From: a virus
IMG/VR virus record: IMGVR_UViG_3300044609_000595
Span: 46,320-110,319 of that record
Direction: 5' to 3' (one strand)
DNA: 64,000 nucleotides
Shown here: positions 9,526 to 36,226 of the stretch, in pieces
Numbering within the stretch: the first letter of the stretch is position 1
Layout of the letters: each line of letters starts with the position of its first letter
Position numbers and translations under genes: made by a program
The notes under the pieces: generated by a model
The model's database searches: none
What the model saw: the letters and a program-made list of their open reading frames with translations, nothing else
What the model was told of the DNA's origin: nothing

Positions 9526-9553
9526 ATAATTACACGAATTGATTTAAAGATAC

Positions 9554-10267: not shown

Positions 10268-10284
10268 CACTCTTCCAAAATAGT

Positions 10285-14153: not shown

Positions 14154-14177
14154 ATATCAACATAGGAAAGTAATCTA

Positions 14178-16757: not shown

Positions 16758-16758
16758 T

Positions 16759-18192: not shown

Positions 18193-18214
18193 ATAAAAAT
18201 AAAACGTGTGATAT

Positions 18215-21139
18215 ATGGATCAAGCGTTATCATCATTATTTCCTGTACATCAAATAGGTTCTGACGGATTTAATTGGTGGGTTGGACAAGTAGAGAGCAA
18301 GAAAGGAGACGACCCTAAAGAATCTGGTAGGTATCGTGTACGTATTGTAGGTCAGCATCTAAAAGATTGTGATGCCGTTCCTACTAATGAATTGCCATGG
18401 GCAAATGTAATGATGCCCGTCACTACTCCATACACTGATGGATTAACTACGGGAGCTTCTGTTGGTCTCGAACCTGGATGTTGGGTACTTGGTTTTTATC
18501 TTGATAATGATAAACAAAAACCAATTATCATGGGATCAATTGGTCACACAAAATACTCAACAGTTTTAAAAAATATTGATCCCAATCCATCAGGTAAGTG
18601 TAAATCATTTACTACCTTCACATCTAATGAAGTAAAACCACAAGTACACTACCCAACAAAGGCACAGAGTGGTGTTGACAAAGAAACTAAAGCAAATGTT
18701 TCTTCTGCTGGTCCCCCTGCTGCAGATGGCGCTACTAAACCAGATGGTGCTCCCCCAGTTTTGCTAGCTGCTTTATCACAATACAGCGAAACAAATCCCA
18801 TTGGTGGTAAAAGTTGTAACATCATTGCCAATCCTAAATGTGGTCAAGAAAAAAATTTAAAAAATAGTATCACTAATATTATAGGTGATCTTCTTGCAGC
18901 TAATCAAGCTTCTAGTGGACAACTGGGAGATTATTATGTTAGTAAAGTTACTGGATTTTTGTATGATAAAGTAGAAATTGCTCGTTATCATATTAGTAGA
19001 CTTACTAGACTTGTTCGTAGCTTTGTTGCTAGAATTAAAGGAGAAGTTATTAAATATATTCGCAAAGGTGTTGATGAATTAGTTAAATTAATTATTGGTA
19101 CTGAAGCAGCCGTCGATGAATTAGGTAATGTAAATACAGGACCACTTGCTGATCCAGAAAAAGCTTTTAAACCAGTAACACCAAAAGGAAATAGATTAAA
19201 AACAATTAAGAAAATTTTTGATAAAATTTTTGCTCAACTTGGTTGTGCTATCGAAGATTTAACAGATAGAATAACTCAATTCATAACTGATCTTATCTTT
19301 GGATTTTTATCAGATCTTTTTTATCAAGCTACCTGTGCTATAGATACAATTGTTCAGGGTATTTTGAATGAAATACTTTCGTTGTTTGATGGTCTTATTG
19401 CACAAATTTTAGGACCACTTCAAGAACTCTTGGGAGTATTTGCTAACCCTTTAAATTTGATCGGTGGTATTCTTAATAATATATTAAGTTTACTAGGCAT
19501 TTCTTGTTCTGGACCAGCAGCAAACTGCGAAGCTATTCAAAAAAAATGTACTGATTGTGGTCAAAATAAAGAAGATGATTTAGATAGATTAATTAAAGCT
19601 ATTGAAGATGGTGCTTTAGATAATGGTGGTGGCGTTTGTGAAGAGGGAAGAACTGTACCTCCAGCAGAACCAACTGAGGTGGATTTTATCGGCGGTGTGT
19701 TTGAAGAATCAACTCCAGATGTAGCAGAAGAACCACCAGGAAATGAAAATACTCCAGATTCTTTCTTCCCTGGTGGTACAGACATTGCAGATGATGCTTT
19801 CCCAGAAGTAGGAACTCCAGAAGAATATGATGATCCATTTAATGATGATGATTTACCCACTCCATCTGGTGATTCTTTTCCTGATGCGGACGCAACGGAT
19901 AATCCATATTATAGTGTAACAGCTGACAAAACTGTAGTAAATGAAGGAGATACTGTAACATTTACTATCAGAACCATTAATGTTCCAGTAGGAACAGTAC
20001 TTAATTACACTTTGTCGGGTGCAAGTATCACCGCATCTGATATTGAAGGTGGAAATTTAACAGGTTCTGTAACAATGTCAACCAGTACAGAAGATGTACA
20101 GATTACAATTGCAGTAGATGATACTGTAGAAACTACGCCAGAAGCATTAACATTCTCAATTGATGATACAGAAGCTTCCGCTACGGTTATAATTGATTCT
20201 GAATTTGAGTTGGTTCCTGGGATCAATGACAATATTGTATTACAACCAACATATTCTGTGGTTGCTGACAAAGCAAGCTATAGTGAAGGCGAAGATATTA
20301 TCTACACTATTACTACAACTAATGTTACTGATGGAACAGTATTAAATTACACTCTAACTGGTGTTGATATTATTCCAAGTTTCTTTATTAATAATACATT
20401 GTCTGGCTCCTTTATTGTAGAAAATAATACGGCACAAGTAGTTGTTGGTATTGCCGAAAATATTGGATGGACTAATAATTATATTCTTTCTTTTATTATT
20501 AATAGTACTGGAGCATTTACTGATTCTGTTTTATTAGCTGATGAGAACGCTGTTGTTCCAGGACAAGATACCATTGGAACTGATGGTGGTATCAAGGAAC
20601 CTAAAATTGGAAAGCCTGTAGCTGGAACACCTATTACTGATGGTAATGGTTCTATTATTAGTATACCAATTTTAAATCCAGGTGATCCCTATCAAAAAGC
20701 ACCTCAAGTTATCATTACTGGAAAGGGATATGGTGCTACTGGAATAGCATTGTTAGATGATAAAGGATACGTATCTGAAATAAGAGTGACAAGAACTGGA
20801 GCAAATTACAAAGTAAATACTCCAACAGAAAGTAATACTCAATGCATCATAGATTCTTTCACTTTAATTTCTCCTGGTGTTGGATACGAAACTGCACCAA
20901 CAGTATACATTAATGGTGATCCGACCATTGCTAAAGCTATTGTTGAAAATGGTTATGTGATTAGTGTAGAAATTGTTGATAGAAATAAAACATATTTAAG
21001 TTTGCCTGAAGTTTTAATCTTGGGAGAGGACGGAGCTGGCGCTAAAGTATTGCCTAATTTATTCTGCCTAGATATACAAGAACTTGAACGTAAAGGATAC
21101 GCCAAGATCGGCACTGGTAAATATATCGATTGTCCATAA
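18215..21139 (+). CDS. gp5: Baseplate hub gp5 (N-terminal OB fold) with added Ig/Calx-beta-like repeats
   Basis: GSDGFNWWVGQVE, GRYRVRIVG.H, LPWA.VMMP.T, G.WVLGF.LD.D.Q.P.IMGSI; ends in YIDCP; no lysozyme domain recognised. Confidence 0.82.
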   Translation: MDQALSSLFPVHQIGSDGFNWWVGQVESKKGDDPKESGRYRVRIVGQHLKDCDAVPTNELPWANVMMPVTTPYTDGLTTGASVGLEPGCWVLGFYLDNDKQKPIIMGSIGHTKYSTVLKNIDPNPSGKCKSFTTFTSNEVKPQVHYPTKAQSGVDKETKANVSSAGPPAADGATKPDGAPPVLLAALSQYSETNPIGGKSCNIIANPKCGQEKNLKNSITNIIGDLLAANQASSGQLGDYYVSKVTGFLYDKVEIARYHISRLTRLVRSFVARIKGEVIKYIRKGVDELVKLIIGTEAAVDELGNVNTGPLADPEKAFKPVTPKGNRLKTIKKIFDKIFAQLGCAIEDLTDRITQFITDLIFGFLSDLFYQATCAIDTIVQGILNEILSLFDGLIAQILGPLQELLGVFANPLNLIGGILNNILSLLGISCSGPAANCEAIQKKCTDCGQNKEDDLDRLIKAIEDGALDNGGGVCEEGRTVPPAEPTEVDFIGGVFEESTPDVAEEPPGNENTPDSFFPGGTDIADDAFPEVGTPEEYDDPFNDDDLPTPSGDSFPDADATDNPYYSVTADKTVVNEGDTVTFTIRTINVPVGTVLNYTLSGASITASDIEGGNLTGSVTMSTSTEDVQITIAVDDTVETTPEALTFSIDDTEASATVIIDSEFELVPGINDNIVLQPTYSVVADKASYSEGEDIIYTITTTNVTDGTVLNYTLTGVDIIPSFFINNTLSGSFIVENNTAQVVVGIAENIGWTNNYILSFIINSTGAFTDSVLLADENAVVPGQDTIGTDGGIKEPKIGKPVAGTPITDGNGSIISIPILNPGDPYQKAPQVIITGKGYGATGIALLDDKGYVSEIRVTRTGANYKVNTPTESNTQCIIDSFTLISPGVGYETAPTVYINGDPTIAKAIVENGYVISVEIVDRNKTYLSLPEVLILGEDGAGAKVLPNLFCLDIQELERKGYAKIGTGKYIDCP

Positions 21140-22313: not shown

Positions 22314-22381
22314 ATCCTACTGAGATTTCTTGGGTTTGTCAAGGGGTTGACAGGCCGCCCCTGATGGTGCTACTATAAATA
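22314..22381. promoter_or_regulatory. Back-to-back sigma70 promoters plus an overlapping late promoter
   Basis: Minus: TTGACA (22342-22337), 17 nt, TAGGAT (22319-22314); plus: TTGACA 22347-22352, 18 nt, TG-C-TACTAT 22371-22376, overlapped by TATAAATA 22374-22381. Confidence 0.7.
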
Positions 22382-22558: not shown

Positions 22559-22630
22559 GGGAATATAGCTTAATGGTTAGAGCGGGCTCCTTATAAGGGC
22601 TTAGTCTGGGTTCAACTCCCAGTATTCCTA
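22559..22630 (+). tRNA. trnI: tRNA-Ile(TAT)
   Basis: Acceptor GGGAATA/TATTCCT, D arm GCTT..GAGC, anticodon loop CTTATAA, T arm CTGGG-TTCAACT-CCCAG. Confidence 0.88.
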
Positions 22631-22636
22631 CCTAAT

Positions 22637-22709
22637 GCTGGTTTAGCAATCTGGCGAATGCAATCGACTCATAATCGATGGGAGGCGAGTTCGATCCTCG
22701 CAACCAGCA
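22637..22709 (+). tRNA. trnM: tRNA with CAT anticodon (elongator Met, or Ile2; not initiator)
   Basis: GCTGGTT/AACCAGC acceptor, ATCGA-CTCATAA-TCGAT, GCGAG-TTCGATC-CTCGC; no C1:A72 mismatch and no GGG/CCC anticodon stem. Confidence 0.85.
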
Positions 22710-22710
22710 C

Positions 22711-22739
22711 TTGACAATCTCAGCAAACCATGCTATGAT
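22711..22739 (+). promoter_or_regulatory. Sigma70-type promoter for tRNA-Leu(TAA)
   Basis: TTGACA, 17 nt, TG-C-TATGAT. Confidence 0.75.
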
Positions 22740-22752
22740 TGTCAGATACCAC

Positions 22753-22836
22753 GGGGATGTGGTGGAAGTGGTAGACACACCAGACTTAAAATCTGTTGGG
22801 AGTAATCCCGTGGGGGTTCAAGTCCCCCCGTCCCTA
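22753..22836 (+). tRNA. trnL: tRNA-Leu(TAA)
   Basis: GGGGATG/CGTCCCT acceptor, CAGA-CTTAAAA-TCTG, long variable arm GGGA-GTAA-TCCC, GGGGG-TTCAAGT-CCCCC. Confidence 0.92.
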
Positions 22837-22854
22837 TTATTTTAATAATTGTTT

Positions 22855-23496
22855 ATGACATATCAAATATATGACTTGTTTCCAACACCATTGTTTACCC
22901 AACAAAATTTTCTTTCTGAAGAACATCTTAAACAAGTACAAAATCTCATAATTAATTCTGAATTTTTTGATCATTCTGATGATAACTATGGAGTTAATCC
23001 AACTGCATCTAAAAATATTTTAAAATCACTTCCTGAAGTTAAACAGGAAATTATGGAAACATTTAAAGAATATGCTAGAAATATTCTTCGAATAGATTTT
23101 AGCATAGATTTTGCGATGGGATCTTGTTGGGGTACTTTGACAAAACCAGGACAAAAATCTAAACCTCATATACATTCAAATTATTATTACAGTGGTTGTT
23201 ATTATATTTCTGATGAACCATCAGCCATAGAATTTCATTTGGGACCCTCGGTTTATAATCATCATGAACGTTTTATGTTTAAGTATCTTGAACATAATGC
23301 ATACAATAATAACAAATTAATTTATTATCCAGTTAAAAATGAAATCATATTTTTTCCAGCTTATTTGAAACATCAAATAACTAAAAATACATCAGATAAA
23401 AATAGATACTCAGTAGCGTTTAATATTCATCCATCTGGAGTTTATGGACGCCACGATAGTCAGTTACACATTCAAGTTATTGATGATTTAGATTAA
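22855..23496 (+). CDS. 2OG-Fe(II) oxygenase (TIGR02466-like)
   Basis: LFPTPL, HIHSN..YSGCYY, IIFFPAYLKHQI, RYSVAFN. Confidence 0.85.
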   Translation: MTYQIYDLFPTPLFTQQNFLSEEHLKQVQNLIINSEFFDHSDDNYGVNPTASKNILKSLPEVKQEIMETFKEYARNILRIDFSIDFAMGSCWGTLTKPGQKSKPHIHSNYYYSGCYYISDEPSAIEFHLGPSVYNHHERFMFKYLEHNAYNNNKLIYYPVKNEIIFFPAYLKHQITKNTSDKNRYSVAFNIHPSGVYGRHDSQLHIQVIDDLD

Positions 23497-23513
23497 AACC
23501 TGCTTAAATAGTA

Positions 23514-23798
23514 ATGAACAGGTTGTGTAACATGAAATACATTCTTTCCCAATCTTATTGCTTCTATATGGGAGAAGTTGTTAGAATGTATTTTATCCAA
23601 GGTATGCCATATACCTTCGACGAACTTCCTGCTCTTATTCAAGACCACCCATCAGTTCAAACTGAAGCATTGAGTAATCGTGATTTTGATGACGAAGATT
23701 TGTATACTTGGTCCAATTATTTGATGATGGAAGAAGCCCACCCTCTAATGTTTGAATTAGAATTTGAAAATCCTGAGTTATTGCCTAAAGATGATTAA
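23514..23798 (+). CDS. Conserved cyanophage hypothetical protein (start may be ATG 23532)
   Basis: VRMYFIQGMPYTFDELP...YLMMEEAHPL.FE; preceded by a late-like TTAAATA; overlaps the cpeT start. Confidence 0.7.
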   Translation: MNRLCNMKYILSQSYCFYMGEVVRMYFIQGMPYTFDELPALIQDHPSVQTEALSNRDFDDEDLYTWSNYLMMEEAHPLMFELEFENPELLPKDD

Positions 23799-24312
23799 CG
23801 AATTTTTTAGATTAATTGAAGGACGTTTTGAAAATAAAACTCAAGCAATGACATATCCTTCGAGATATGCTATGATTAGAGTTACCCATGTCAATCTTGG
23901 TGGTGGTTTAATTTATGGAGAACAAGCTTACAATTATCAACTAAATAAACCGTACCGTCAATTTGTTCTTCGGCCTGTAGAAGAAAACGGTCAAATTCAT
24001 ATCTATAATTATGAATTGATTGATAAAGAAAACTACACTGGCTTCAAAAGACTTGACGAAATAGACCAGGATGTGCTAAGATTAAGGAGTGGTTGCGATG
24101 TCTTCATGACACCAAAAAACAATTCTTTCGTGGGGGGTATCCAAGGATGTGATTGTATGGTAGACTGGATGGGTCGTCAAACCTACCTCCAAAACGAAAT
24201 TGAGATAACACCATCTCATTATTATGTTATGGATCGTGGATTCTGTGCTGAACATAAACATCAGCTCTGGGGTTCTAAATATGGTAGGTTTGAATTTGTT
24301 AGAATGTCATGA
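23791..24312 (+). CDS. cpeT: CpcT/CpeT-family (T-type) phycobiliprotein lyase
   Basis: G.F.N..QA..YP..YA.I...H, YGEQAY.Y....PYRQ, GCD, F.G...GC.C, DRGF....QLWGS..G.FEF. Confidence 0.9.
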   Translation: MINEFFRLIEGRFENKTQAMTYPSRYAMIRVTHVNLGGGLIYGEQAYNYQLNKPYRQFVLRPVEENGQIHIYNYELIDKENYTGFKRLDEIDQDVLRLRSGCDVFMTPKNNSFVGGIQGCDCMVDWMGRQTYLQNEIEITPSHYYVMDRGFCAEHKHQLWGSKYGRFEFVRMS

Positions 24313-24710
24313 AAAATCCTTGGAAAGCTTTAATAGCTAAAGCAAAAACAGCAGCCAGACCTGGACAAGAGAAAAAAAATGGTATCAAACGAACTGAACC
24401 ATTAGATGTTACTATTGATGAACTTTATTTGAGAAATCAATTTGCTGAACAAAATGGTAAATGTTATTGGACTGAATTTCCCATAGACCCCTTTGGTGTG
24501 TATGAAAAAAGTAATCCACTAAGTCCAAGTTTAGAAAGGCTTGATGAATCATTGGGATATATTCCTGGAAACGTAGTCATTGCTTTAAGGTTATTTAATC
24601 TTGGTAGGCAAAGATGTCCAGAAAAAAAATTTAGAAATCAAGTAGAAAAATTAAAAAAACATTTTCAAGGAAAGCAAGTGACTTCTAATTTACATAATTT
24701 TTTGTGTTAA
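24309..24710 (+). CDS. HNH-like (beta-beta-alpha-Me) endonuclease, possibly homing
   Basis: EQNGKCYWT...SPSLERLDESLGYIPGNVV....FNLGR resembles the QxGxCxxT..SLDRID..GY..GNV...N family. Confidence 0.6.
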   Translation: MKNPWKALIAKAKTAARPGQEKKNGIKRTEPLDVTIDELYLRNQFAEQNGKCYWTEFPIDPFGVYEKSNPLSPSLERLDESLGYIPGNVVIALRLFNLGRQRCPEKKFRNQVEKLKKHFQGKQVTSNLHNFLC

Positions 24711-24720
24711 ATAATTATAT

Positions 24721-24792
24721 GCCCTTGTAGCTCAGTGGTAGAGCAACGGTTTTGTAAACCGTTGGTCGTCTGTTCGAATCAGATCGGGGGCT
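24721..24792 (+). tRNA. trnT: tRNA-Thr(TGT)
   Basis: GCCCTTG/CGGGGGC acceptor, GCTC-AGTGGTA-GAGC, ACGGT-TTTGTAA-ACCGT, GTCTG-TTCGAAT-CAGAT. Confidence 0.92.
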
Positions 24793-24832
24793 TTGGTAGT
24801 CGTTAGGCACATAGCTTAGAAAGACGCCAAAC

Positions 24833-24923
24833 GTAGGTGCCAAAACCGCTCCTCAGTCCTAGTATTCTGTGTCTGAGTGAATGTAAAGAGTGGGGACATA
24901 GGTAAAGTCCTCGACGCCTACCA
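24833..24923 (+). ncRNA. Putative structured ncRNA with pseudoknot
   Basis: Closing stem GTAGGTG/CGCCTAC, inner stems CCGCTC/GAGTGG, CTCAG/CTGAG, TATTC/GAATG, GGAC/GTCC; GC-rich, no credible ORF, between tRNAs. Confidence 0.55.
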
Positions 24924-24926
24924 CAA

Positions 24927-24998
24927 CTTCTGGTAGTCTATTGGTAAGGACGGGTGGACAACACACATGGAAACTAGGTTCGATTCCTAGACAGAGGA
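24927..24998 (+). ncRNA. tRNA-like element with aberrant anticodon arm
   Basis: 72 nt; CTTCTG/CAGAGG acceptor, D arm GTCT-ATTGGTAA-GGAC, perfect T arm CTAGG-TTCGATT-CCTAG; anticodon arm only GTG/CAC around GACAACA. Confidence 0.6.
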
Positions 24999-25001
24999 AA
25001 T

Positions 25002-25112
25002 AAGGTAAGGAAAGTAAAAGGAGCATGGGAACCGTATGGAGATACCGCACCTGCCTTGTTAACACCCCTCAAGCCTATCTCGGGACGCCGAATGATGCTC
25101 AAACAGAGGGGT
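25002..25112 (+). ncRNA. Putative two-domain structured RNA
   Basis: AAGGTAAGG/CCTGCCTT and ACCCCTC/GAGGGGT closed domains; cross-complementary GAGCAT/ATGCTC and GAGATA/TATCTC. Confidence 0.45.
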
Positions 25113-25116
25113 CACT

Positions 25117-25196
25117 GCCCAAGTGGTGAAATTGGTATACACGCATGACTTAGGATCATGTGCTTCGGCGTGGAGGTTCGAGTCCTCTCTTGGGCA
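25117..25196 (+). tRNA. trnL: tRNA-Leu(TAG)
   Basis: GCCCAAG/CTTGGGC acceptor, CATGA-CTTAGGA-TCATG, variable arm GC-TTCG-GC, GGAGG-TTCGAGT-CCTCT. Confidence 0.92.
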
Positions 25197-25214
25197 CTTC
25201 GGATTCTGTAATCC

Positions 25215-25283
25215 GAAATTGAAAAACTAAATCCATGAAACGGGGAAAAAATTCTCCGCCAAAAAATCGTCAAAAAAGTCGAG
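25215..25283. repeat. Phased A-tract element, copy 2
   Basis: Ungapped match to 22217-22285; preceded by the hairpin TTCGGATT-CTGT-AATCCGAA. Confidence 0.75.
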
Positions 25284-25292
25284 GGTAAAAAA

Positions 25293-25436
25293 ATGAGCTT
25301 ACTTTCTAAAAAAGATCACGAAATAGTCATCGAGGCACTAGAAACCCTAATTCAATCAAAAGAGGAATCTGACGATAAATTTGAATACTATAATTTACTC
25401 AATTGGGTAAAACTTAAATCAAAAGATAAATTTTGA
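25293..25436 (+). CDS. Small hypothetical protein (47 aa)
   Basis: MSLLSKKDHEIVIEALE...YYNLLNWVKLK; GAGG upstream. Confidence 0.55.
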   Translation: MSLLSKKDHEIVIEALETLIQSKEESDDKFEYYNLLNWVKLKSKDKF

Positions 25437-25443
25437 TAATTAT

Positions 25444-25515
25444 TGGAGTGTAGCTCAGTGGTAGAGCGGTCGGCTGTTAACCGATTGGTCGTAGGTTCGA
25501 ATCCCACCACTCCAG
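25444..25515 (+). tRNA. trnN: tRNA-Asn(GTT)
   Basis: TGGAGTG/CACTCCA acceptor, G discriminator, GTCGG-CTGTTAA-CCGAT, GTAGG-TTCGAAT-CCCAC. Confidence 0.92.
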
Positions 25516-25556
25516 TTGGCGATACTGTCAAACCAGACCCCTTCCGTGTGACTTTG

Positions 25557-25581
25557 AAACCTCCCTTCTATGGGGGGTTTT
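25557..25581 (+). terminator. Intrinsic terminator closing the tRNA island
   Basis: AAACCTCCC-TTCTAT-GGGGGGTTTT. Confidence 0.7.
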
Positions 25582-25585
25582 ATTG

Positions 25586-25593
25586 TATAAATA
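25586..25593 (+). promoter_or_regulatory. T4-type late promoter for the giant structural gene
   Basis: Perfect TATAAATA 40 nt upstream of ATG 25634. Confidence 0.85.
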
Positions 25594-25633
25594 CTCGTAA
25601 GAAGAAAAACGTAACTACAAGGTCTGAGTAATT

Positions 25634-28600
25634 ATGGCTCTTACAAGACTTGATAATCTTTACTCAAGTAAAACTGGCAGATATTTATATGTTTCACCAG
25701 ATGATTTTAATGCTACTGATGAATTAGACAATCGAGGAAATTCTCCTCTACGTCCATTTAAAACAATCCAGAGAGCCTTTATCGAAGTAGCTCGTTATTC
25801 ATACCTCCCAGGTAGAAATAACGATAGATTTGACCAGTTCAGCATCATGTTGATGCCTGGTAATCACTATATCGACAACCGCCCAGGTGTAGTTGGTGTT
25901 ACTAACACAGAACCAAGATATCTTGACGGTGCTAATTTAATCGAAGCAAACCGCCAAGAAATTATTGACAGAGCATTTGCTGAAATTGCTGTTGAATATG
26001 ACGAATCTCTTTGGGGAACTGATTGGGTAGTTCCTGGGGATCCCATCAACAGCGATTTAAACAGAGGATTCGATTCATATAGATTAATCCAAAAAAATCG
26101 TTTAGACATTATTGATGAAGCCTTCAACACAATGTTGGCTTTTAATCCAGGATTTGAAGTTCCTAATGGTGATGCAAAATGTAAGAGAGATATTGGATAT
26201 TTTGTTGATGCCGTATCTTTAGACATCCTTTTGGGTGGCAGTAACAAGTATACTCGCAAGTTTATTCAAAATTATTTTAATTCCACTGGCACTGCTTGGC
26301 TTTCCAACACGTTACAAGGTGAGCAAACGCAATCAATTCAAGCATTTAATGCTGCCAGAGATTTGATGAATGAAGCTGTAACCAATCAGCTAGATTACAA
26401 AGATTTAACTCTTACTGCAGATCCCCTAGTTGGTTCTAATGTAAATATAAATTCTTGTGCAAACATCAGATCTGCTATTACTTCTCTCACTACATTAGTT
26501 ACTGATAGAATTACTGCAAATTCTCTAAATGGTCTTCCTGCAGAAACCCCAGGCATCTTAATCGGTCCAGGTCAATCAATTTGCCAACGTGATATTGGCT
26601 ATATTGTTGATGCTGTTGTTGCTGACCTTAAAACTGGTGGAAATAGCAATTCAGTTCAAGCTGCTAGATCATATTTTGATAGAAATGGTGATCCAATTGC
26701 CAATGGTTTGATTGGAGAAGAATCTCAATCAATTATTGCATTCGATGCAGCTAAAGTTATGATGAAAAAGGCTGTAACCAACCAGCTGTATTCTAAAGAT
26801 TTAACTTTGCTAGAAGGTCCTTCTATTGCAAACGCTTCCACAGAGATTCAACCAATTCTTCCTTCTGGCAATGAATTAAGCTGTGTTGATGTTCAAAATA
26901 GCATCGAAACTCTAATTGCTATTATCACTAGTGTAATTGCTGATGGTAATTTAACCAGTCTAGCTGATATTCAAATTACTGGTGATATTCCTGTATTTAA
27001 TTACAATCAAGCTTTAGAAGAGTGGAATGACAACAGCATTCTAGATCTTTCTAACCCAGATAACGTTCTCTACAAATTTAACGCTGCCACTGGCGGTGCT
27101 ATCGTGCCCAGAGGCTGCTCTCTAATCGGCTACGACCTGCGTAGAACTATTGTACGACCTCTTTATGTACCTGATCCTGCAGACGGCACACAGGCCCGTA
27201 CATCGATCTTTAACCTAACTGGTGGTTGCTACATTTGGCAGTTTACAATTAAGGATGGTGATCTTTCTGCTAATTCTCCTTTGTTTGATGAAACAAATGG
27301 TGTAGGTAAAGTATATTTCCAAAAAGGAAATACAGTAAATCTTGCGATACCTGAGTATTCGCACCATAAGATTACTATCATGACTTATGCTGATAGTGAT
27401 GATTTAACAGATTATTACACTAAAATTGGCAGGGCGTTTGCTAAATTCCAGCCATCTATTGATAATGCTGGAGAATTTGATGCTCTAGTACAAGAAAATA
27501 GAATTGTAGGACCTTTATCAGATACTAGAAGAATTGACAGCATTCAAGTGTTTGATTCTTCTCCAGCAGGAACCTTAACTCTTCGTGTAACCACTAAGAT
27601 TGACCATGGTTACTTTGTAGACCAATATGTTGCTATTTTAAATACTGGATTAGATGAAGCTATCAACGGTACAGTAAAAGTTACTGCAATTGACAATAGC
27701 AATCCTAGAGTATTTGAATACGAAATTAATGCAACTACTGCTGCTCTTGGATTAGTTAGCGGTCAAATTTATACTGCTGCTAGCGGTCTTAGTACCAATG
27801 CAGTTTCTCAAGCAGAAATTGACTCAGTAGAATCTGCTTCTCCATATGTATTCAACTGCTCAATTCGCTCCACCTGGGGTATTTGTGGCATGTGGGCGGA
27901 TGGATCTAAAGCAACTGGATTCAAGTCGATGGTTGTTGCCCAGTATACTGGTGTTTCACTACAGAGAGATGACAGAGCATTTATTCGTTATGATAGATTT
28001 ACCAATACTTGGAATCAAGCATCACTGACTGATGCGTTTGCTACTGTAGCTTATCACACCAAGGGCGATGCTTACTGGAAGGATGACTGGAGAAACTTCC
28101 ACATTCGTGCTTCTGACGATTCCTTCATTCAGTGTGTTTCGGTCTTTGCTGTAGGATTCTTTGATCACTTCTTAATGGAATCTGGTGGTGACATGTCCAT
28201 CACCAACTCCAACTCCAACTTCGGTAATACTTCACTTCACGCTGTAGGATTTAAAGGATTCTCGTTCAATCAGGATAAAGGTGGTTATATCACTGATATT
28301 ATCCCACCAAGAACTATTAATAGTTCACCAAGCAACGAAGAAAAAATACAGTATTATACGCTTGATATTCAAGCATCTAATGCACAAAACAATCATACCA
28401 GACTTTATATTGGTTCAGATGATGCTACCGATCCAGCAGATCGCCCAGCAGCAACAGTAAGTGGTTACAGAATTGGTGCCAGAAGTAATGAAAAACTTTA
28501 TGTAAAATTAGATGATGGAACATATAATGTTACCCTTGAACCAAATGGTTTTGTTTCTTATAAAGCATCGCTAGAAACTCTAAACCCAGCTGGTATTCAA

Positions 28601-31600
28601 ATTGATAACGTAGCTCAAGACGCTGCTAATAGAATTGAAGATAACAAAACATTAATTCAAAACGAAGCTTACAATTATATCATTGCTAAGTATCCATATC
28701 TACTAACCAGACAAAGCATCACAATTGCTAAATGTGAAAGAGACATCGGCTATTTTGTTGATGCTGTAGTACAAGATCTTAGACTTGGTGGTAATGTAAA
28801 CACCATTCAAGCTGCCGAAGGTTATTACGTTGGTGGTTCTTTAGCCTACATTAATAGTGAATTAGACGAAACTATCGAAGCTCTTGATTATGTCAAGAAC
28901 ATGTGTATCGCAGCAATGCGTAACTTTGATGTTCTTATTAGAAATTGTGAGACAGAAGCTGGTTCTGCGATTGTAAATGTTGGTGATACAACAGGTCTTC
29001 TGGTTGGTATGTCAGTTGCTGAATACAATCCATCAGCATTTGTCAATAATAAACTGACTAGTGGGATTTCCCCAATCACTTCTAATATTCCAACAAATAC
29101 TTACATTAAGAGAATTCTTGATGATCAAAGAATTGAATTAGGAGAATCTTCTTCCAAATTAACCGCTGGCAATACAATTGATGCTCAGCAATCATCATCA
29201 ACTGCATACCTCTATTTTGATTATCAATTCGGTGCATGGTCTAGCCTACAACCAACCAAAGATGATAGCTTAATTCAAGATACCAATTATCCAGAATGTG
29301 CTGATATTGCAACTACGATTTCACAATATTTTAGTGACATATTTGTTGTAATAAATCAAGGATTAACTCCTCTTGGTGGCAGAGAAATTGATGCACATAA
29401 CTTAATTTTAGCAAACAAAGAATTGATTGCTGAAGTTGCTGTTGACAGAATGTTAACAAATTATCCTGGTTTTGTTATTCCAAACGGAAATCAAAACTGT
29501 GTGGATGATATTATTGATGTTATGGAAGCAATTGCTTTTAACGTCAAATATGGTGGTAATAATAAAGTATATGAAGCTGGCGAAATTTATATCAGTGGAC
29601 AGCATGTTGAAGGAGAGGAAGATCAAGCAGTTTATGCATTCTTGCAGGCTAAAGACATTGCCATTCAAGTAATGAGAAATGAACCAGTAACTATTACTGG
29701 TTCAACTAGAACTCAATTTATTGATTCTACTATTGTAGTAGATCCACAATCACCAACTTGTGCAAATATTGCTTCTGCAATTACGAACTTAACTTCTATT
29801 ATTACACAATCTATTGGCACATCAACAGTTTCTGGTAGCTTAGTTGGAATTACTAAATCAATTCCAACTATCACATCAGTAAATAAAATTGAACCAATTA
29901 TTGATTTTAATGGTCTTTCTAAGAGAGCAACATTATTCACAATTAACACTGGGGAAGCAACTTCCAACCCACACCAATTTGAAACTGGAACTCCAGTTAA
30001 ACTTATTCCTAAGGCAAAAGAAGGAACTAATCCAGATAAGAGAGTTATTCGTCTACCAAAAGGATTTAGCACCAACACCAAGTATTATGTAATTGCTCCT
30101 GGTAGATTTACTCAGCCAGAAGATTACTCTGGCACCACATATTTTGATGGCTCGGATCAGACCAAATTGATGCTGGCTGCTACAAAAGAGAATGCTGCTG
30201 CTGGTATCTTTATTTACTCACCAGAAACAGATTCTGTAGATCCTGATGTAGAAATTGAAGTTCAAAGATACATTCTTGACAATACATATGATCTACACAA
30301 ATACAGATGTAATGTTGCTGGTGCTGGAGAAATTGAAACTGACGTTGCACATATCTTTGATCTTCCTAGCAATTCAGTAACTCCTCAGCTAGTATTCTTC
30401 CGTGTTGCAAATGATATTCTTGGTTCCGATCTTCCAGAAATCGCTGGTGCAGGAACTATCAATACACAAACATATTATTATGCTAGATTTATCTCACCAA
30501 AGAAATTTAGTATTCACACAACATTTGCTGATGCAATTGCTGGAGTAAATGCGGTTTCGTTTGTTCCTGGTAGTGGGCAGAACTTCTATGTATTTGCTAA
30601 CAAGCGTACCAGCCCACTAAGATTTGAAGCTGCTCCTAGAGATGAAGATGGACTATTACTGAATACCAGTGGTCTTTGGTACTTACAAGTTAAAGATGAA
30701 ACATCAAGCAATCCAAATACAGAAAGCATTCTGTATCGTTTCAAGGATATTGCTGCTTACGGTCCTGGTTCTGGCAAAATAAGAACACTTGATACTTGGT
30801 TTACTAGATTACAAGATACCAGAGGTAAAGAAGATCGTGTTTATAGATTACGTTATGTAATTCCTAAGTATCTTGAAACTGTTCGTGATCCTCTCAACGG
30901 TTTTGTTATCAAAGTTCGTACAGACGATAAGAGACGTTTAGTTCCACAAAAATTTGTACTTAAGCCAATTGGCGGTGCTCCATCTGTAGCTAGATTTGAC
31001 AACCCAGAACAGATTGGCGAAAGAATTGGCTATACCAAAACTGAACTTCTCGAAGATTATGGTATTGCTAATCCTACTTACGATCCATACTTAGCACCTA
31101 AAGTAATTGGTAGCGAAAGAACTCAGAGTAAGATTGCCTTTACAATTCAGTCTGCTAGAAAAATTGAAGATGAAAGTACAGAATATCTAGAAATCACCGC
31201 ATTTGATCATGCTATCACGAATGAAGGACTGAAAAATGAAATTTTCAGTGTTGTTGAAATTAATTTCCCTCAGGGTGGAACATTCTCGGTTAATAATGTT
31301 GGCGCTGGATTATCAAATCTAGTAACCTGGAATGGCTTCTCTAGTGGAAGTGGTTATATCCAAGGATATTTCGAAGAAAATAATAATTATTATCTAGTAA
31401 TCAAAAATATCACTGGTCAGATTAAATATAGCAGCATTGTTTCTACTAGATTTACTCAGGGTGATGTATTTGCTGATCTAATGGCTAAACCCAATAGCAT
31501 GGGTGATCCGAATGGCAAGGATAAGTCTGATCGCAGAGATTATCTGTACAGAATTGAAGGAGCCAATGTTTATACTTTAGTTCCAGGAGATATTATTACT

Positions 31601-34600
31601 GATGATGCTAATAATCAGTATAGAATTGAAAATGTTCGTGACGCTGGAAATCTTGAAGATAGTTTCTACATCTTCGACATCGACACAATTCAAGAGAGAA
31701 TTGCTGGTCAACAAGATGGTATTTACTATCTAACTTGCCTTCGTGGTAACATTTCTCCATTCCCAACTGGAGCTGGTGTTGGTACAAACTTCAGAAACTT
31801 TAAGTTCTCGCAGCCAATTTCACAACTATATCCACAGAATTATAAGAATGATCCTACGTGGTTCAAGCAAGTTAATTCTGTATACAATGATCCCCCTGCA
31901 TCTATTGCTGCAGCAGACAACTATATTCATGGTTTAGTTACTATCAACGATGCTAAAAATAGCGAAACTAAAGAATTGGTTCAGGATTTAATTCTGCAGC
32001 CAGCATTAACTAATTTCACTTTTGTTAAGGCAGAATCTTTAAGTTCCGCAACTTTAAATCCAGTTGGTGGTTCTAATATCATCGAAGCTCAGGAAGGTAA
32101 TGCTACTTCTGGTTCGGAAGATAGATACATTCCTATTGCTGGTGATTCTGATTTCCCAACCGAAGGAAAACTTTATGTAGAACTACGTAGACCTTCTATT
32201 GCACGTTCGGGCAACCATACATTTGAATACCTAGGTTTCGGTCCTGGTAACTACTCAACTGGCTTCCCACTTCGCCAGGAAGTTGTTCTTGCCGATGTTC
32301 AAGACTTCTATGCTCAGTCTAAGAGAGAAGACGGTGGTATCGTATTCTATACTGGTCTAAACTCCAACGGCGATCTTTACATTGGCAACAGAAAAGTCAA
32401 CGCTATTACTGGCGAAGAAACTTTCCTTGAAAGAGCAGTTCTAGAAGAATCTGCTGATGACGGTGGAGATGATTTGGGTGGTCTAGTTACAACCTTCGAC
32501 ACTCCTGTAACATTTAATGATAGAATTACTGTTGAAGGTAATGCTAATTTTAACAATCCTGTAGAGATTAGTGTTGCTGCAAACGAAGGAACTCCTCTTA
32601 GAATCTTCAGTGTAGTTAATGCTGATCTTGGCGATGATATTACATTAGGAAGAGCACAATTCCCTCAATCTAATGATGGTGACATTACTCTAGGTAAGAA
32701 TAGAATTAATGCTGCAGTATATGGAATTACTCCAAGACAAGTTCTTGGTTTAGATGGTCAAGCATATTCTATTAGAACTCACTTTGTAAATGGTCTTGGA
32801 CCATCGAATACAACTCCAGATCAAAATGCAACATTCAGTTCTCTGCAGGCAGTATCCTATAGTTCTACTCAAAATCCAAAGCCAGGTGATATTTTACTAA
32901 AAGGCAGTGAAGTAGGACGTTCAGGTTCACTTGGTTGGATATATGCCAACTATTATGCTGAAATTGCTGATGCCAGCATTCAAACAATTGTTAGTGATGG
33001 CATTCGCATGACAATTGAATGGGCTCCTGGCATAACAAATGCTGATGTTAACGTCATTGCAGGTGCTCAGCTAAGAATTACAAACTTCGGCACGAATCCA
33101 AATCTTAACGGCATTTGGACTGTTCTTTCTAATGGATTTAGTTCCAGTGGTACTTCATGCCAAATTCAAATTATTATAACTCCAGCAGTTGGTGTTCTTT
33201 ATACTTGGTCTACCGTTCCTGGTGCCAAGATGGAAGTTGCCCGCTCCAATTGGAAGGAAACTGGACTACTTGGTGCAGAAGCACTCAGAACTGAGACAGA
33301 AACCTGGGGCGATTATAAGTTAGGTATCAACACTCTTTCTAGAGCTTCTGATCTTGCTTACTTGAATGGATTTGTTCAAACTCAAACACAACCAAGAGCT
33401 AATCTTGATGTTGTTGGTGATGCATTTATTAGCGGTACAAATACTGCAATTACTGTAACAAATACAGGAAATCAAGTTAAGACTACAACTAAACTAGATA
33501 ATGCTTTCTTAGTTGGTGGAAATAGTGCTTCTCCAAACCAAGCTGCAACACTAAGAGTTGCAACTATTGATATCCCATCTGGTAGTAGAGCAACAACTAC
33601 TTATAGAGACGGTGGAAGATTTGGTATTAATACAACAATTAATACTAATGCATCAACTGATCTAGATAGAAACTTAGTTGTTGTTGGTGATGGTAGAATT
33701 ACAGGCAATCTGTTAATTCAAGATGATATTAGTGTAAACGGTGGAGATATTAACACCACTAACAATGTATTCAATTTTGTTAACAATAATGCTACTATAT
33801 TGAATATTGCTGGTAGCGGTGAAATCTTTAGCATTGGTAATAATGCTGCTGGCTCACAAAATGTTAATATTGGCAATAATGCTTCATCTCAAGTAATTGA
33901 AATTGGTGGCAATGCAACAATTACCAGACTTGGTATTCACAAAAATTCTCTTGACGCTAGCGTTGATATTGCCTCTGTAAATGATAATGCTGCTAACAAG
34001 GCAAACATCGTTATTGGTGGTGCCTGGGGCAATCTGAACAGCCAAACAACAATTGGTACATTCCAAACCAAGGTTGCTGGTCAACTTGAAATTGGTACTA
34101 AGTATGCTCCAGGAACAAGCACTGCTAGATTGTTCACTCAAGCAAGAACAGTAAATCTATTTGATGGAGACCAAACAACTACAGTTAACTTTGGTCCAAA
34201 CGCTACCAAGATGTCAATTGGTTCTGTTGGTGGTAATACTTACATCAGAAACACTCTCAATGTTGATGCTAGCACAATTCTTAATTCTGAATTGAGACTA
34301 TCTGGTGGTCTCAAGTCTGGCATCATTCAAATTCAAAGAGGAAGATTCTCTACAACTCCAGCTGCTCATGTTGTTGGTAGCCTAGAGAATCCAAATATTG
34401 ATTTCTATAGATACGAAACATTAGGTAGAAAAATTGATACTGCTGGTGAAACTTTATGGGGTGGTCCAGCATTCTTGATTGCTGGTGGTCAAATTGCAGG
34501 AATTGATACTATTGGTGCCGTAAGTCCATCCAGATTACCAGGAACATATACTTTTATTGCTCCAACGGGTGGAACTGGCACTGGCGCTACTTTCAACATT

Positions 34601-36226
34601 ACAATTACAATTGTAGGCGAAATTAGTATTGAATTAGTAAGTGCTGGTACTGGATACAGCGATAATGATGTTTTAACTGTAACAGATAATTTACTCGGTG
34701 GTGGTGGAGCGCCTGCTCTAACATTCCAAGTAAACGGAGTAAATGCTGCTGGTTCTAATTTCTACTTACCAATCACTGTACCAGCTACAACCGATTTTGC
34801 AATTGGTGATCTACTGTTAATTGACAGAGGAAATGCTATTTCTCCAGATGCTGTTGGTGATGGTAGTGGTGGTCAAATCACTGGATTGAGAAATCAAGCC
34901 TACAGTGAAATTGTTCGTGTGGTTGGTTTAACAAACGTTAGCAATCCTTCTGATATAAATGGCTACCGAATTGAAGTTGTTCGTGCTCAAGAAGGAACTC
35001 AAGCAAGAACAGATCACCCAGATGCTTGTGTAATTGCTAAGCTTAATAAGCAAGCAAATGCTAGCTTTATTACTGGATCTGATCTTGATGGTAACGGTGT
35101 ATTAGAATTCCCACCAAATGGTATTACCGCAAATGGTAATAATGTAAACATTGGAGTTGCTGAATTTGGTGGTGTTATTACAACCAATGATTTCTTCCGC
35201 TTGAGTGATTCAGAAATTGTTAAAGTTGCCCAAGTTGTTAGCACCGAAATTCAATCATTAATTATTACTGATGGTGGTGTACCAGAATCCGAAGTATTTA
35301 AAGTTGAATCTACAACTGGTAATACTAAGCTACTAGGAAACCTATCTGTTGGTTTTGGATTCAATAAGTTAACGGTAGACGGAAGCACTGGCAATACTAA
35401 TATTGCTGGAACTCTTACCTCTAATGGCACTCTAACTCTTCGTGGTTCTACCGTAGTTAATAACCAATTCTTTACTATCACAAATGGTGGAGCTACTGGA
35501 GTTACTGAAAGAACTACATTCCAAATTGATAGTGCTAATGGCAATCTAACTCTAAATGGTGGTTCGATTAACATCTACGGTACAGATGGAACTACTCCAA
35601 GACTTACATTCAATAATTCTTCTGGTGATTTTACAACTTATGGTTCGTTCTCTGCTCTTGGCACAGGAACCAGCACATTTGGCGGAGGAATTCTTGTTCA
35701 AGGAGATGCCACTATCAATGGTGGAGATCTAACTGTAAATTCTGGAGGAGCTTTATCATTCAAGGTAAGCAATGATAGATCAGTTACTTTAGCTGGCATT
35801 CCTTACTTCTACAACCAAAATGGTGGTAGAAAGTGGATTTATACCGATGAAAGCGTAATTGATGCTACATCAAATATTAATATCTTTGTTAATGCTCTAA
35901 GCAATACCTTAATTAAGCTACCAAGTAATCCTAGAATGGGTGATATGATTAGAATTGTTGATGTTGGAGGAAACCTCAACAACATTAATAGCCTTGTCGT
36001 TAGAGCACCTGATGGCATTCGTGTACAAGGAACGTTAACAAATACAGCAAGAACTCTTCTTACTGGAGTTGGCTCCTCAACTACCTTTATAAATTATAAT
36101 GGAGGCGAATTAGTTGTTCAAACTCCATTTGCTGGATTTGCCTTGGTTTACCTATCCCAAGCTAATCCCGATGGAACTGCTGGCGGTCCTTCATCTAAGG
36201 TAGGTTGGTATTTAACCGAAGTATAA
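25634..36226 (+). CDS. Giant virion structural / fibre-like protein (3530 aa) with phycobiliprotein-like repeats
   Basis: Late promoter; N-terminus MALTRLDNL..KTGRYLYV.P.DF.ATD...N.GNS..RPFKTIQRA typical of cyanomyovirus giant structural proteins; beta-rich C-terminal half ending GW.L.EV. Confidence 0.85.
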   Translation: MALTRLDNLYSSKTGRYLYVSPDDFNATDELDNRGNSPLRPFKTIQRAFIEVARYSYLPGRNNDRFDQFSIMLMPGNHYIDNRPGVVGVTNTEPRYLDGANLIEANRQEIIDRAFAEIAVEYDESLWGTDWVVPGDPINSDLNRGFDSYRLIQKNRLDIIDEAFNTMLAFNPGFEVPNGDAKCKRDIGYFVDAVSLDILLGGSNKYTRKFIQNYFNSTGTAWLSNTLQGEQTQSIQAFNAARDLMNEAVTNQLDYKDLTLTADPLVGSNVNINSCANIRSAITSLTTLVTDRITANSLNGLPAETPGILIGPGQSICQRDIGYIVDAVVADLKTGGNSNSVQAARSYFDRNGDPIANGLIGEESQSIIAFDAAKVMMKKAVTNQLYSKDLTLLEGPSIANASTEIQPILPSGNELSCVDVQNSIETLIAIITSVIADGNLTSLADIQITGDIPVFNYNQALEEWNDNSILDLSNPDNVLYKFNAATGGAIVPRGCSLIGYDLRRTIVRPLYVPDPADGTQARTSIFNLTGGCYIWQFTIKDGDLSANSPLFDETNGVGKVYFQKGNTVNLAIPEYSHHKITIMTYADSDDLTDYYTKIGRAFAKFQPSIDNAGEFDALVQENRIVGPLSDTRRIDSIQVFDSSPAGTLTLRVTTKIDHGYFVDQYVAILNTGLDEAINGTVKVTAIDNSNPRVFEYEINATTAALGLVSGQIYTAASGLSTNAVSQAEIDSVESASPYVFNCSIRSTWGICGMWADGSKATGFKSMVVAQYTGVSLQRDDRAFIRYDRFTNTWNQASLTDAFATVAYHTKGDAYWKDDWRNFHIRASDDSFIQCVSVFAVGFFDHFLMESGGDMSITNSNSNFGNTSLHAVGFKGFSFNQDKGGYITDIIPPRTINSSPSNEEKIQYYTLDIQASNAQNNHTRLYIGSDDATDPADRPAATVSGYRIGARSNEKLYVKLDDGTYNVTLEPNGFVSYKASLETLNPAGIQIDNVAQDAANRIEDNKTLIQNEAYNYIIAKYPYLLTRQSITIAKCERDIGYFVDAVVQDLRLGGNVNTIQAAEGYYVGGSLAYINSELDETIEALDYVKNMCIAAMRNFDVLIRNCETEAGSAIVNVGDTTGLLVGMSVAEYNPSAFVNNKLTSGISPITSNIPTNTYIKRILDDQRIELGESSSKLTAGNTIDAQQSSSTAYLYFDYQFGAWSSLQPTKDDSLIQDTNYPECADIATTISQYFSDIFVVINQGLTPLGGREIDAHNLILANKELIAEVAVDRMLTNYPGFVIPNGNQNCVDDIIDVMEAIAFNVKYGGNNKVYEAGEIYISGQHVEGEEDQAVYAFLQAKDIAIQVMRNEPVTITGSTRTQFIDSTIVVDPQSPTCANIASAITNLTSIITQSIGTSTVSGSLVGITKSIPTITSVNKIEPIIDFNGLSKRATLFTINTGEATSNPHQFETGTPVKLIPKAKEGTNPDKRVIRLPKGFSTNTKYYVIAPGRFTQPEDYSGTTYFDGSDQTKLMLAATKENAAAGIFIYSPETDSVDPDVEIEVQRYILDNTYDLHKYRCNVAGAGEIETDVAHIFDLPSNSVTPQLVFFRVANDILGSDLPEIAGAGTINTQTYYYARFISPKKFSIHTTFADAIAGVNAVSFVPGSGQNFYVFANKRTSPLRFEAAPRDEDGLLLNTSGLWYLQVKDETSSNPNTESILYRFKDIAAYGPGSGKIRTLDTWFTRLQDTRGKEDRVYRLRYVIPKYLETVRDPLNGFVIKVRTDDKRRLVPQKFVLKPIGGAPSVARFDNPEQIGERIGYTKTELLEDYGIANPTYDPYLAPKVIGSERTQSKIAFTIQSARKIEDESTEYLEITAFDHAITNEGLKNEIFSVVEINFPQGGTFSVNNVGAGLSNLVTWNGFSSGSGYIQGYFEENNNYYLVIKNITGQIKYSSIVSTRFTQGDVFADLMAKPNSMGDPNGKDKSDRRDYLYRIEGANVYTLVPGDIITDDANNQYRIENVRDAGNLEDSFYIFDIDTIQERIAGQQDGIYYLTCLRGNISPFPTGAGVGTNFRNFKFSQPISQLYPQNYKNDPTWFKQVNSVYNDPPASIAAADNYIHGLVTINDAKNSETKELVQDLILQPALTNFTFVKAESLSSATLNPVGGSNIIEAQEGNATSGSEDRYIPIAGDSDFPTEGKLYVELRRPSIARSGNHTFEYLGFGPGNYSTGFPLRQEVVLADVQDFYAQSKREDGGIVFYTGLNSNGDLYIGNRKVNAITGEETFLERAVLEESADDGGDDLGGLVTTFDTPVTFNDRITVEGNANFNNPVEISVAANEGTPLRIFSVVNADLGDDITLGRAQFPQSNDGDITLGKNRINAAVYGITPRQVLGLDGQAYSIRTHFVNGLGPSNTTPDQNATFSSLQAVSYSSTQNPKPGDILLKGSEVGRSGSLGWIYANYYAEIADASIQTIVSDGIRMTIEWAPGITNADVNVIAGAQLRITNFGTNPNLNGIWTVLSNGFSSSGTSCQIQIIITPAVGVLYTWSTVPGAKMEVARSNWKETGLLGAEALRTETETWGDYKLGINTLSRASDLAYLNGFVQTQTQPRANLDVVGDAFISGTNTAITVTNTGNQVKTTTKLDNAFLVGGNSASPNQAATLRVATIDIPSGSRATTTYRDGGRFGINTTINTNASTDLDRNLVVVGDGRITGNLLIQDDISVNGGDINTTNNVFNFVNNNATILNIAGSGEIFSIGNNAAGSQNVNIGNNASSQVIEIGGNATITRLGIHKNSLDASVDIASVNDNAANKANIVIGGAWGNLNSQTTIGTFQTKVAGQLEIGTKYAPGTSTARLFTQARTVNLFDGDQTTTVNFGPNATKMSIGSVGGNTYIRNTLNVDASTILNSELRLSGGLKSGIIQIQRGRFSTTPAAHVVGSLENPNIDFYRYETLGRKIDTAGETLWGGPAFLIAGGQIAGIDTIGAVSPSRLPGTYTFIAPTGGTGTGATFNITITIVGEISIELVSAGTGYSDNDVLTVTDNLLGGGGAPALTFQVNGVNAAGSNFYLPITVPATTDFAIGDLLLIDRGNAISPDAVGDGSGGQITGLRNQAYSEIVRVVGLTNVSNPSDINGYRIEVVRAQEGTQARTDHPDACVIAKLNKQANASFITGSDLDGNGVLEFPPNGITANGNNVNIGVAEFGGVITTNDFFRLSDSEIVKVAQVVSTEIQSLIITDGGVPESEVFKVESTTGNTKLLGNLSVGFGFNKLTVDGSTGNTNIAGTLTSNGTLTLRGSTVVNNQFFTITNGGATGVTERTTFQIDSANGNLTLNGGSINIYGTDGTTPRLTFNNSSGDFTTYGSFSALGTGTSTFGGGILVQGDATINGGDLTVNSGGALSFKVSNDRSVTLAGIPYFYNQNGGRKWIYTDESVIDATSNINIFVNALSNTLIKLPSNPRMGDMIRIVDVGGNLNNINSLVVRAPDGIRVQGTLTNTARTLLTGVGSSTTFINYNGGELVVQTPFAGFALVYLSQANPDGTAGGPSSKVGWYLTEV
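25925..29816 (+). repeat. Four helical protein repeats (A 25925-26940 with B 26072-26512 nested inside, C 28619-29360, D 29390-29816)
   Basis: Shared pattern D...I..N...I...A...C.(R/D)DI...(V/M)(D/E)A......GG...E......A...............N...C.(N/D)(I/V)...I. Confidence 0.8.

Follow-up and report, generated by a model that had tools for sequence, protein, structure and literature searches.

A cpeT cassette upstream of a giant tail protein with phycobiliprotein beta-like repeats in a T4-like cyanomyovirus genome

The 64,000-nucleotide (nt) stretch of viral DNA considered here (the window; positions 46,320 to 110,319 of IMGVR_UViG_3300044609_000595) is part of a 110-kb IMG/VR genome, 57% complete, of a T4-like cyanomyovirus, and its closest relatives among isolates are the Synechococcus phages Sf-FR1 and S-PM2. 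On the strand shown it carries cpeT, a gene for a T-type phycobilin lyase, and, downstream of it, the gene of a giant tail protein with four repeats that resemble the beta subunits of phycobiliproteins (Table 1). A first-pass annotation had read the two genes as a pair in which the phage lyase would attach bilins to the phage's own structural protein rather than to the antennae of the host. Our analysis bears out the identity of both members of this proposed pair, but it tips us slightly toward a different reading, namely that the lyase and a small partner gene act on the bilin pool or the phycobiliproteins of the infected cell and that their adjacency to the repeats is positional.

By its sequence, cpeT is a genuine T-type bilin lyase gene. 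Its product matches the Pfam family CpeT (PF06206) over profile positions 2-181 of 181 (E 3.6e-39; 134.9 bits with a cut-off of 21), and its homology to cyanobacterial CpcT/CpeT extends over the full length, including the solved CpcT structure 4O4O (E 1e-23, residues 7-172). Residues Y55, R56, D148 and W160 of the phage protein, which are invariant across 33 phage sequences, align to Y65, R66, D163 and W175 of CpcT, which we take, after Zhou 2014, to be the residues implicated in bilin binding or catalysis, and the protein looks like a working T-type bilin-binding lyase. Its gene is the one that goes by the name cpeT in S-PM2, S-RSM4, S-CAM and S-RIM phages (42-54% identity), while the protein is longer than PhiCpeT of phage P-HM1 (5HI8; 173 versus 136 amino acids [aa]), to which its match is confined to residues 1-58 (E 1e-4). 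Unlike the cpeT of hosts, the phage gene comes without cpeE/S/R companions (PMC3037559) and is coupled instead to an 88-aa open reading frame (ORF) in the tail module. Like ho1, pebS and pcyA of cyanophages, it is one of the pigment genes that T4-like cyanophages derive from their hosts and for which the gain to the phage has been called unresolved (PMC3037559). None of these three bilin-synthesis genes was found in the 110-kb record, though the incompleteness of the genome makes this uninformative. Phage P-SSM2 does have bilin-synthesis genes (PMC2984593), where they coexist with neither cpeT nor the repeats, so the repeats and bilin synthesis are not linked. A second cpeT gene is present in some cyanophage genomes: two IMG/VR genomes (G008 and G009) have a long-type copy beside a giant fiber gene and a second, weaker-matching copy ~39 kb off, and another (G029) has two weak-matching copies ~107 kb apart.

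The giant protein contains only 19 cysteines in its 3530 residues, and in each of its four repeats a second conserved cysteine follows the first after 87-188 residues. A template-free AlphaFold2 model of repeat R1, built from an alignment of 35 repeats, reached a predicted local distance difference test score (pLDDT) of 83.5 and a predicted template modeling score (pTM) of 0.82. VIA-align superimposed it on the beta chains of phycoerythrin (PE) and phycocyanin (PC) with Z 17.4 and a root-mean-square deviation of 1.9-2.1 Å over 137 residues, and Foldseek matched it to phycobiliprotein beta chains with a probability of 1.00. The top 50 VIA matches were beta chains of PE, PC, phycoerythrocyanin or cryptophytes (Z 15.5-17.6), with a fluorescent-protein entry, 8u0f_C, as the sole exception. 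Model residues 12-166 align to chain residues 32-177 of PE beta or 32-172 of PC beta, and the offsets of these aligned ranges place C55 of the model on beta-Cys82 and C147, which stands immediately before helix H (148-167), on beta-Cys158 of PE or beta-Cys153 of PC. A profile hidden Markov model of the repeats also aligned their kC.RDigY motif to Cys84 of CpcA. Judged by the modeled fold, the repeats are real phycobiliprotein beta-like domains and their second conserved cysteine is the equivalent of the site served by T-type lyases.

With genuine phycobiliprotein beta subunits, the repeats share the globin-like helices A-H, a cysteine at position 82/84 in a CxRD motif and another at 153/158 before helix H. 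They differ from them in lacking the N-terminal X/Y helices that make alpha-beta monomers: the alignment starts at chain residue 32, and many repeats start only ~10 residues before their first cysteine. The B-E loop of the repeats is 7 residues shorter and their G-H loop long and variable. They share ~20% identity with the beta subunits, and their bilin binding is putative. Also in contrast to beta subunits, they occur as 1-36 tandem copies within virion proteins of 1100-7900 aa. At 50% identity, the whole family falls into 1454 clusters, and in the phage collection it was found in cyanophages only (349 records). While cpeT in cyanophages is already well known, the repeats in virion proteins appear to be new, as our literature search found no paper that describes structural proteins of cyanophages with phycobiliprotein-like domains or that names such domains as a substrate of CpeT.

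To assess the conservation of the two cysteines, we drew on 234 loci and isolates, which yielded 457 distinct full-span repeats. The first-pass annotation had stated that the second cysteine is retained in every repeat, and this is so for all four repeats of the window (C275, C417, C1222 and C1376) and for 96.9% of the sampled ones; the first cysteine is kept in 97.2%, the arginine that follows it in 80.3% and the aspartate in 98.9%, in repeats that are otherwise 25-50% identical. No part of the repeat is better conserved, or nearer to genuine phycobiliproteins, than the KCxRDIGY around the Cys84-like site. Among 22 exceptional repeats, 17 have lost a single cysteine and five have lost both, which makes double loss ~12 times commoner than chance (~0.4 expected), and Phe, Trp or Tyr often stands in place of a lost cysteine. 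Selection on both cysteines is strong and independent of a phage cpeT (see below for the phages with cysteine-bearing repeats and no such gene).

For comparison of gene neighborhoods, related cpeT loci were found with a 12-row CpeT alignment, and 80 IMG/VR loci were compared. An ORF of family phrog_4134 accompanies cpeT in 78 of them. The real start of this ORF in the window is the ATG at 23532, giving 88 aa, and not 23514, because its homologues begin with MKY, and its end overlaps cpeT by 8 nt (ATGATTAA), in line with the overlap that the first-pass annotation had seen. The AlphaFold2 model of its product (pLDDT 95.6) consists of three strands and helices, and an invariant H70-P71 and a C-terminal NPELLP motif mark the family. 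No fold neighbor of this model was found in the PDB (Foldseek E >0.5; best Z of a wide VIA search 2.1). NblA-, CpeR- or CpeS-like identities were considered and rejected, with no Pfam match, no PDB fold neighbor and nothing corresponding in the viral NblA preprint. The 88-aa protein may be a partner of CpeT.

Upstream of this ORF lies the TTAAATA that had been called late-like in the first-pass annotation. Taken alone, the motif is at chance level (27 matches in the window versus 28 expected) and was discarded as evidence, but it does count as a conserved element because 63 of 67 distinct related loci have an NTAAATA 25-37 nt ahead of the start codon of the homologous ORF. There it stands mostly inside an inverted repeat of 5-9 bp (e.g., TTCCAC-TAAATA-...-GTGGAA), an arrangement that points to a promoter embedded in a hairpin or to a 5'-terminal RNA element of the transcript. 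Syn9 has CTAAATA at the same position, and no NTAAATA is present upstream of cpeT in P-HM1 and P-HM2. The late-promoter consensus of S-PM2 is NATAAATA (PMC2984593), from which the TTAAATA of the window is one base off; exact TATAAATA, with 3 matches versus 6.9 expected, is no commoner in the window than by chance. From these comparisons of sequence, the 88-aa ORF and cpeT are a cassette with a conserved late-type promoter motif. In P-HM2, published expression classes put cpeT, like psbA and psbD, among the middle genes and the next gene among the late ones (PMC5082946, supplementary file 3).

The cassette and the giant gene are set into the layout given in Table 1. From the end of cpeT to the ATG of the giant gene we count 1322 nt, in agreement with the ca. 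1.3 kb given earlier. The statement that cpeT lies among structural genes is right for the wider flanks, with gp5-like hubs on one side and short tail fibers on the other (a short-tail-fiber gene of family phrog_4591 comes after the giant ORF), but not for the immediate neighbors, which are an oxygenase gene, an endonuclease-like ORF and transfer RNAs (tRNAs). Much of this content is variable and mobile across relatives: a homologue of the oxygenase occurs in only three of the 80 cpeT loci, and the endonuclease-like ORF, whose start overlaps the cpeT stop (ATGA), is missing from all 80 and is a mobile insert in the cpeT slot. Together with four tRNA(-like) genes, this ORF fills the gap between cpeT and the giant gene, which marks the gap as an insertion hot spot. 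The giant gene appears from the sequence to have its own late promoter, and because a terminator-like hairpin at 25561 is followed by this TATAAATA, cpeT and the giant gene are apparently separate transcription units. The gene order of S-PM2 from p210 to p219 matches that of the window.

Two records of relatives show irregularities of their own. In IMGVR_UViG_3300008261_000807, a close relative, the giant ORF (8962-18383) and cpeT (3573-4051) are each broken into two overlapping frames, by either sequencing frameshifts or decay of this copy. The S-PM2 record AJ630128 has 16 tRNA features annotated within the coding region of S-PM2p218 (168556-173383), which looks like a coordinate error.

Table 1. 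Features of the window around cpeT and the giant tail protein gene, in window coordinates
Feature	Position	Strand	Basis or details
gp5-like baseplate hub / tail lysozyme gene, 974 aa	18215-21139	+	phrog_1922, E 7e-262
gp5-like baseplate hub / tail lysozyme gene, 362 aa	21130-22218	+	phrog_4540, E 4e-103
Exact T4-type late promoter motif TATAAATA, 5' of tRNA cluster and oxygenase gene	22374-22381	+	sequence
tRNA cluster 5' of oxygenase gene	22559-22836	–	ARAGORN
2-oxoglutarate (2OG)-Fe(II) oxygenase gene	22849-23496	+	PF13759, E 6.9e-16
Late-type promoter-like TTAAATA (23504-23510) within 6-bp inverted repeat AACCTG...CAGGTT	23497-23524	+	sequence
88-aa ORF, phrog_4134	23532-23798	+	phrog_4134, E 5e-41
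cpeT, T-type phycobilin lyase, 173 aa, long phage type	23791-24312	+	PF06206, 4o4o
Homing-endonuclease-like ORF, 133 aa	24309-24710	+	phrog_3322 endonuclease, E 1e-37; also HNH and endonuclease VII families
Four tRNA(-like) genes (Thr, Leu-caa, Leu-tag, Asn) and short ORF, between cpeT and giant gene	24721-25516	+	ARAGORN, sequence
Terminator-like hairpin and T-run	25561-25585	+	sequence
Exact TATAAATA, directly 3' of hairpin, 41 nt before giant gene ATG	25586-25593	+	sequence
Giant tail protein, 3530 aa, phrog_4527 "short tail fiber" family, S-PM2p218 homologue	25634-36226	+	PHROG match; Pfam Phycobilisome PF00502, E 5.9e-11
Repeat R1	26024-26557	+	C183 Cys84-like (26180-26182, AKCKRDIGY); C275 Cys155-like (26456-26458)
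Repeat R2	26531-27055	+	C317 (26582-26584, ICQRDIGY); C417 (26882-26884)
Repeat R3, long insertion before helix H	28589-29377	+	C1034 (28733-28735, KCERDIGY); C1222 (29297-29299)
Repeat R4, type B (NCVDDI, Arg lost, Asp kept)	29342-29947	+	C1289 (29498-29500); C1376 (29759-29761)

To see how cpeT and the repeats are distributed across phages, we scored 20 complete isolate genomes for both. Fourteen have cpeT and repeats (P-HM1, P-HM2, P-SSM4, P-SSM7, P-RSM4, Syn9, Syn19, Syn33, S-PM2, S-SM1, S-ShM2, S-SSM5, S-WAM1 and S-SZBM1), three have neither (P-SSM2, S-SM2 and S-SSM7), three have repeats only (B3, DSL-LC03 and S-BM3) and none has cpeT only. Naive one-sided Fisher tests, which ignore kinship, give p = 0.018 for all 20 isolates and p = 0.0015 for the unselected 17, and five added phages of the Sullivan set each have at least two repeats with both cysteines. 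In a g23 phylogeny, a single clade (Shimodaira-Hasegawa-like approximate likelihood ratio test 99) holds five of the six isolates that lack cpeT and includes the three repeat-less phages: P-SSM2, S-SM2 and S-SSM7 group with B3 and DSL-LC03. Because the cpeT-less phages are thus mostly a single clade, the co-occurrence table comes down to one or two independent events. B3 and DSL-LC03 have both cysteines in every repeat and no cpeT, S-BM3, with its single repeat, and one 83%-complete IMG/VR genome also combine repeats with a lack of cpeT, and P-SSM4 has kept cpeT while all three of its repeats are without both cysteines. The target cysteines are therefore not restricted to phages with cpeT (B3 and DSL-LC03 versus P-SSM4), which is not what a dedicated pair of lyase and substrate would lead one to expect. 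An independent distribution of cpeT and repeats had been named in the first-pass annotation as what would speak against its pairing, and it is seen in part, with cysteine-bearing repeats in phages without cpeT and with the cpeT of P-SSM4 beside cysteine-less repeats, but with no isolate that has cpeT alone.

From this context we infer as the most likely target of CpeT the bilin pool or the phycobiliproteins of the host, a reading to which we give a little more than even credence. The cassette of 88-aa ORF and cpeT would have lodged in a fixed, insertion-prone slot between the gp5-like hub and the fiber genes; CpeT would, as phage CpeT is conventionally supposed to do, capture phycoerythrobilin (PEB) or phycocyanobilin in the infected cell and would serve host phycobiliprotein sites, or feed other lyases that serve them, rather than being a dedicated modifier of the virion. 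In the clade of the window, the next downstream fiber gene would merely happen to carry repeats, and the adjacency of cpeT to them would then be positional. Such a slot is apparent in P-HM1 and Syn9, where cpeT sits at the same place between gp5 and fiber genes, the downstream fiber genes are without repeats and the repeats lie 35-58 kb away in other ORFs of 4400-7300 aa; an adjacency specific to the repeat gene is thus not found in these phages outside the long-type clade. Where a locus extends 5 kb or more from cpeT in both directions, the two gp5-like genes lie upstream in 35/36 and 28/36 cases, and this flank is conserved as well as that of the repeat gene. For the host side, a rise in phycoerythrin during S-PM2 infection has been ascribed to cpeT (PMC2984593), and Gasper 2017 is cited, in PMC13041748, for an aid to fast assembly of host phycobiliproteins or a role in the PEB pool. 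Several observations weigh against an action on the host: a repeat-bearing ORF follows cpeT on the same strand in each of the 59 long-type loci that reach 5 kb or more downstream, the gap from cpeT to the repeat gene is only ~15-165 nt in some of them, cpeT without repeats is found in 0 of the 20 isolates and the cassette is preceded by its conserved late-type motif. The PhiCpeT of P-HM1 reportedly did not pass PEB to the host beta subunit, and the phycoerythrin of the MED4 host is without the beta-155 site, which together leave no obvious host substrate there. Finally, the Cys84-like site of the repeats keeps the bilin-contacting arginine and aspartate, and their second conserved cysteine stands on the only site known for T-type lyases (PMC2327270).

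These same features lend the pairing of the first-pass annotation its appeal. CpeT would attach bilin to the phage's own repeats at their Cys155-like site, the Cys84-like site would, as a further part of this proposal, be loaded by host S-type lyases or autocatalytically, and the tail or baseplate of the virion would leave the cell with covalent bilin. We regard this as plausible and unproven, but do not favor it and think it rather unlikely, its step at the Cys84-like site included. For it speak the R1 model, with beta subunits as its top matches and with C147 and C55 on the beta-Cys158/153 and beta-Cys82 positions, the ~97% conservation of both cysteines, the split of the isolates and the additional Sullivan-set phages, and a CpeT that keeps the residues aligned to those of CpcT. 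Single losses of a cysteine outnumber double losses and the replacements are aromatic, which is not the pattern of an obligate disulfide within the domain. T-type lyases are moderately specific for the protein and highly specific for the beta-Cys153/155/158 site (PMC2327270), and the role of phage cpeT has been called unresolved (PMC3037559). A prediction of the complex of CpeT and R1 from alignments, run with no controls, scored 0.29 with the mark at 0.32 and favors neither side. Against the pairing stand the exceptions on both sides (B3 and DSL-LC03; P-SSM4), the positional adjacency in P-HM1 and Syn9, the few independent events on the g23 tree and the middle-gene class of cpeT in P-HM2. Recognition by the lyase is, moreover, not assured, since the repeats are without X/Y helices and have the shorter B-E loop, and we know of no report of a pigmented cyanophage virion. 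If CpeT only held a bilin pool, as is reported for PhiCpeT, with host S-type lyases or the repeats themselves loading the Cys84-like pocket, the prominence of KCxRDIGY as the most phycobiliprotein-like part of the repeat would find an explanation. Lyases of the S/U type are broad as to protein but specific as to site, which is Cys84 (PMC9705338), bilins are bound spontaneously by most apoproteins in vitro (PMC2327270), and the pool role for which Gasper 2017 is cited in PMC13041748 would fit as well. Yet this indirect link runs into the same exceptions of B3, DSL-LC03 and P-SSM4 as the direct one and leaves the equal conservation of the Cys155-like residue unexplained, and we consider it very improbable.

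A bilin need not be involved at all. The cysteines could form disulfides between repeats or between chains, or bind metal, outside the cell, with the fold serving as a building block only, and we take this seriously while rating it somewhat below an even chance. Two conserved cysteines per extracellular repeat are a classic disulfide signature, their joint loss far exceeds the independent expectation (by ~12-fold), and repeats in tandem, as many as 36 in one protein, would permit head-to-tail links. The two bilin sites lie, however, at opposite ends of the phycobiliprotein domain, single cysteine losses are commoner than double ones, S-BM3 has one repeat only, and a disulfide does not explain why the bilin-contacting aspartate is better conserved than the cysteines themselves. 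Whether the repeats bind bilin at all seems to us a nearly balanced question that leans slightly to the negative.

One phenotype of cyanophages gives these domains a wider interest. P-HM1 and P-HM2 do not adsorb to their hosts in the dark while P-SSM2 does (Liu et al. 2019; PMC6628666), and the adsorption of S-PM2, which also fails in the dark, is independent of host photosynthesis, so that the light dependence might reside in the tail fibers (PMC6628666). S-PM2, P-HM1 and P-HM2 have cpeT and cysteine-bearing repeats and P-SSM2 has neither, a correspondence that involves three independent phages only; for S-BM3, our literature search found no adsorption phenotype. Were the repeats to carry bilins, attached by CpeT at the Cys155-like and by host S-type lyases at the Cys84-like site, the virion itself could be a photoreceptor and the basis of light-dependent adsorption in cyanomyoviruses, which we consider improbable. 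If true, this would explain the presence of ho1, pebS and cpeT in phages of Prochlorococcus, a host without phycobilisomes.

For 20 years, phage cpeT, ho1 and pebS have served as textbook examples of auxiliary metabolic genes with, to our knowledge, no demonstrated benefit. If the virion were the substrate of the lyase, cpeT would be a structural rather than a metabolic gene, cyanophage particles would be the first chromophorylated virions, and there would be a molecular candidate for the light-dependent adsorption of S-PM2 and P-HM1/2. Even if that pairing is wrong, cyanophages have a large family of phycobiliprotein beta-like repeats that conserve both bilin cysteines and a conserved cassette of 88-aa ORF and cpeT with a late-type motif, and B3, DSL-LC03, S-BM3, P-SSM4 and P-SSM2 offer natural contrasts between them.

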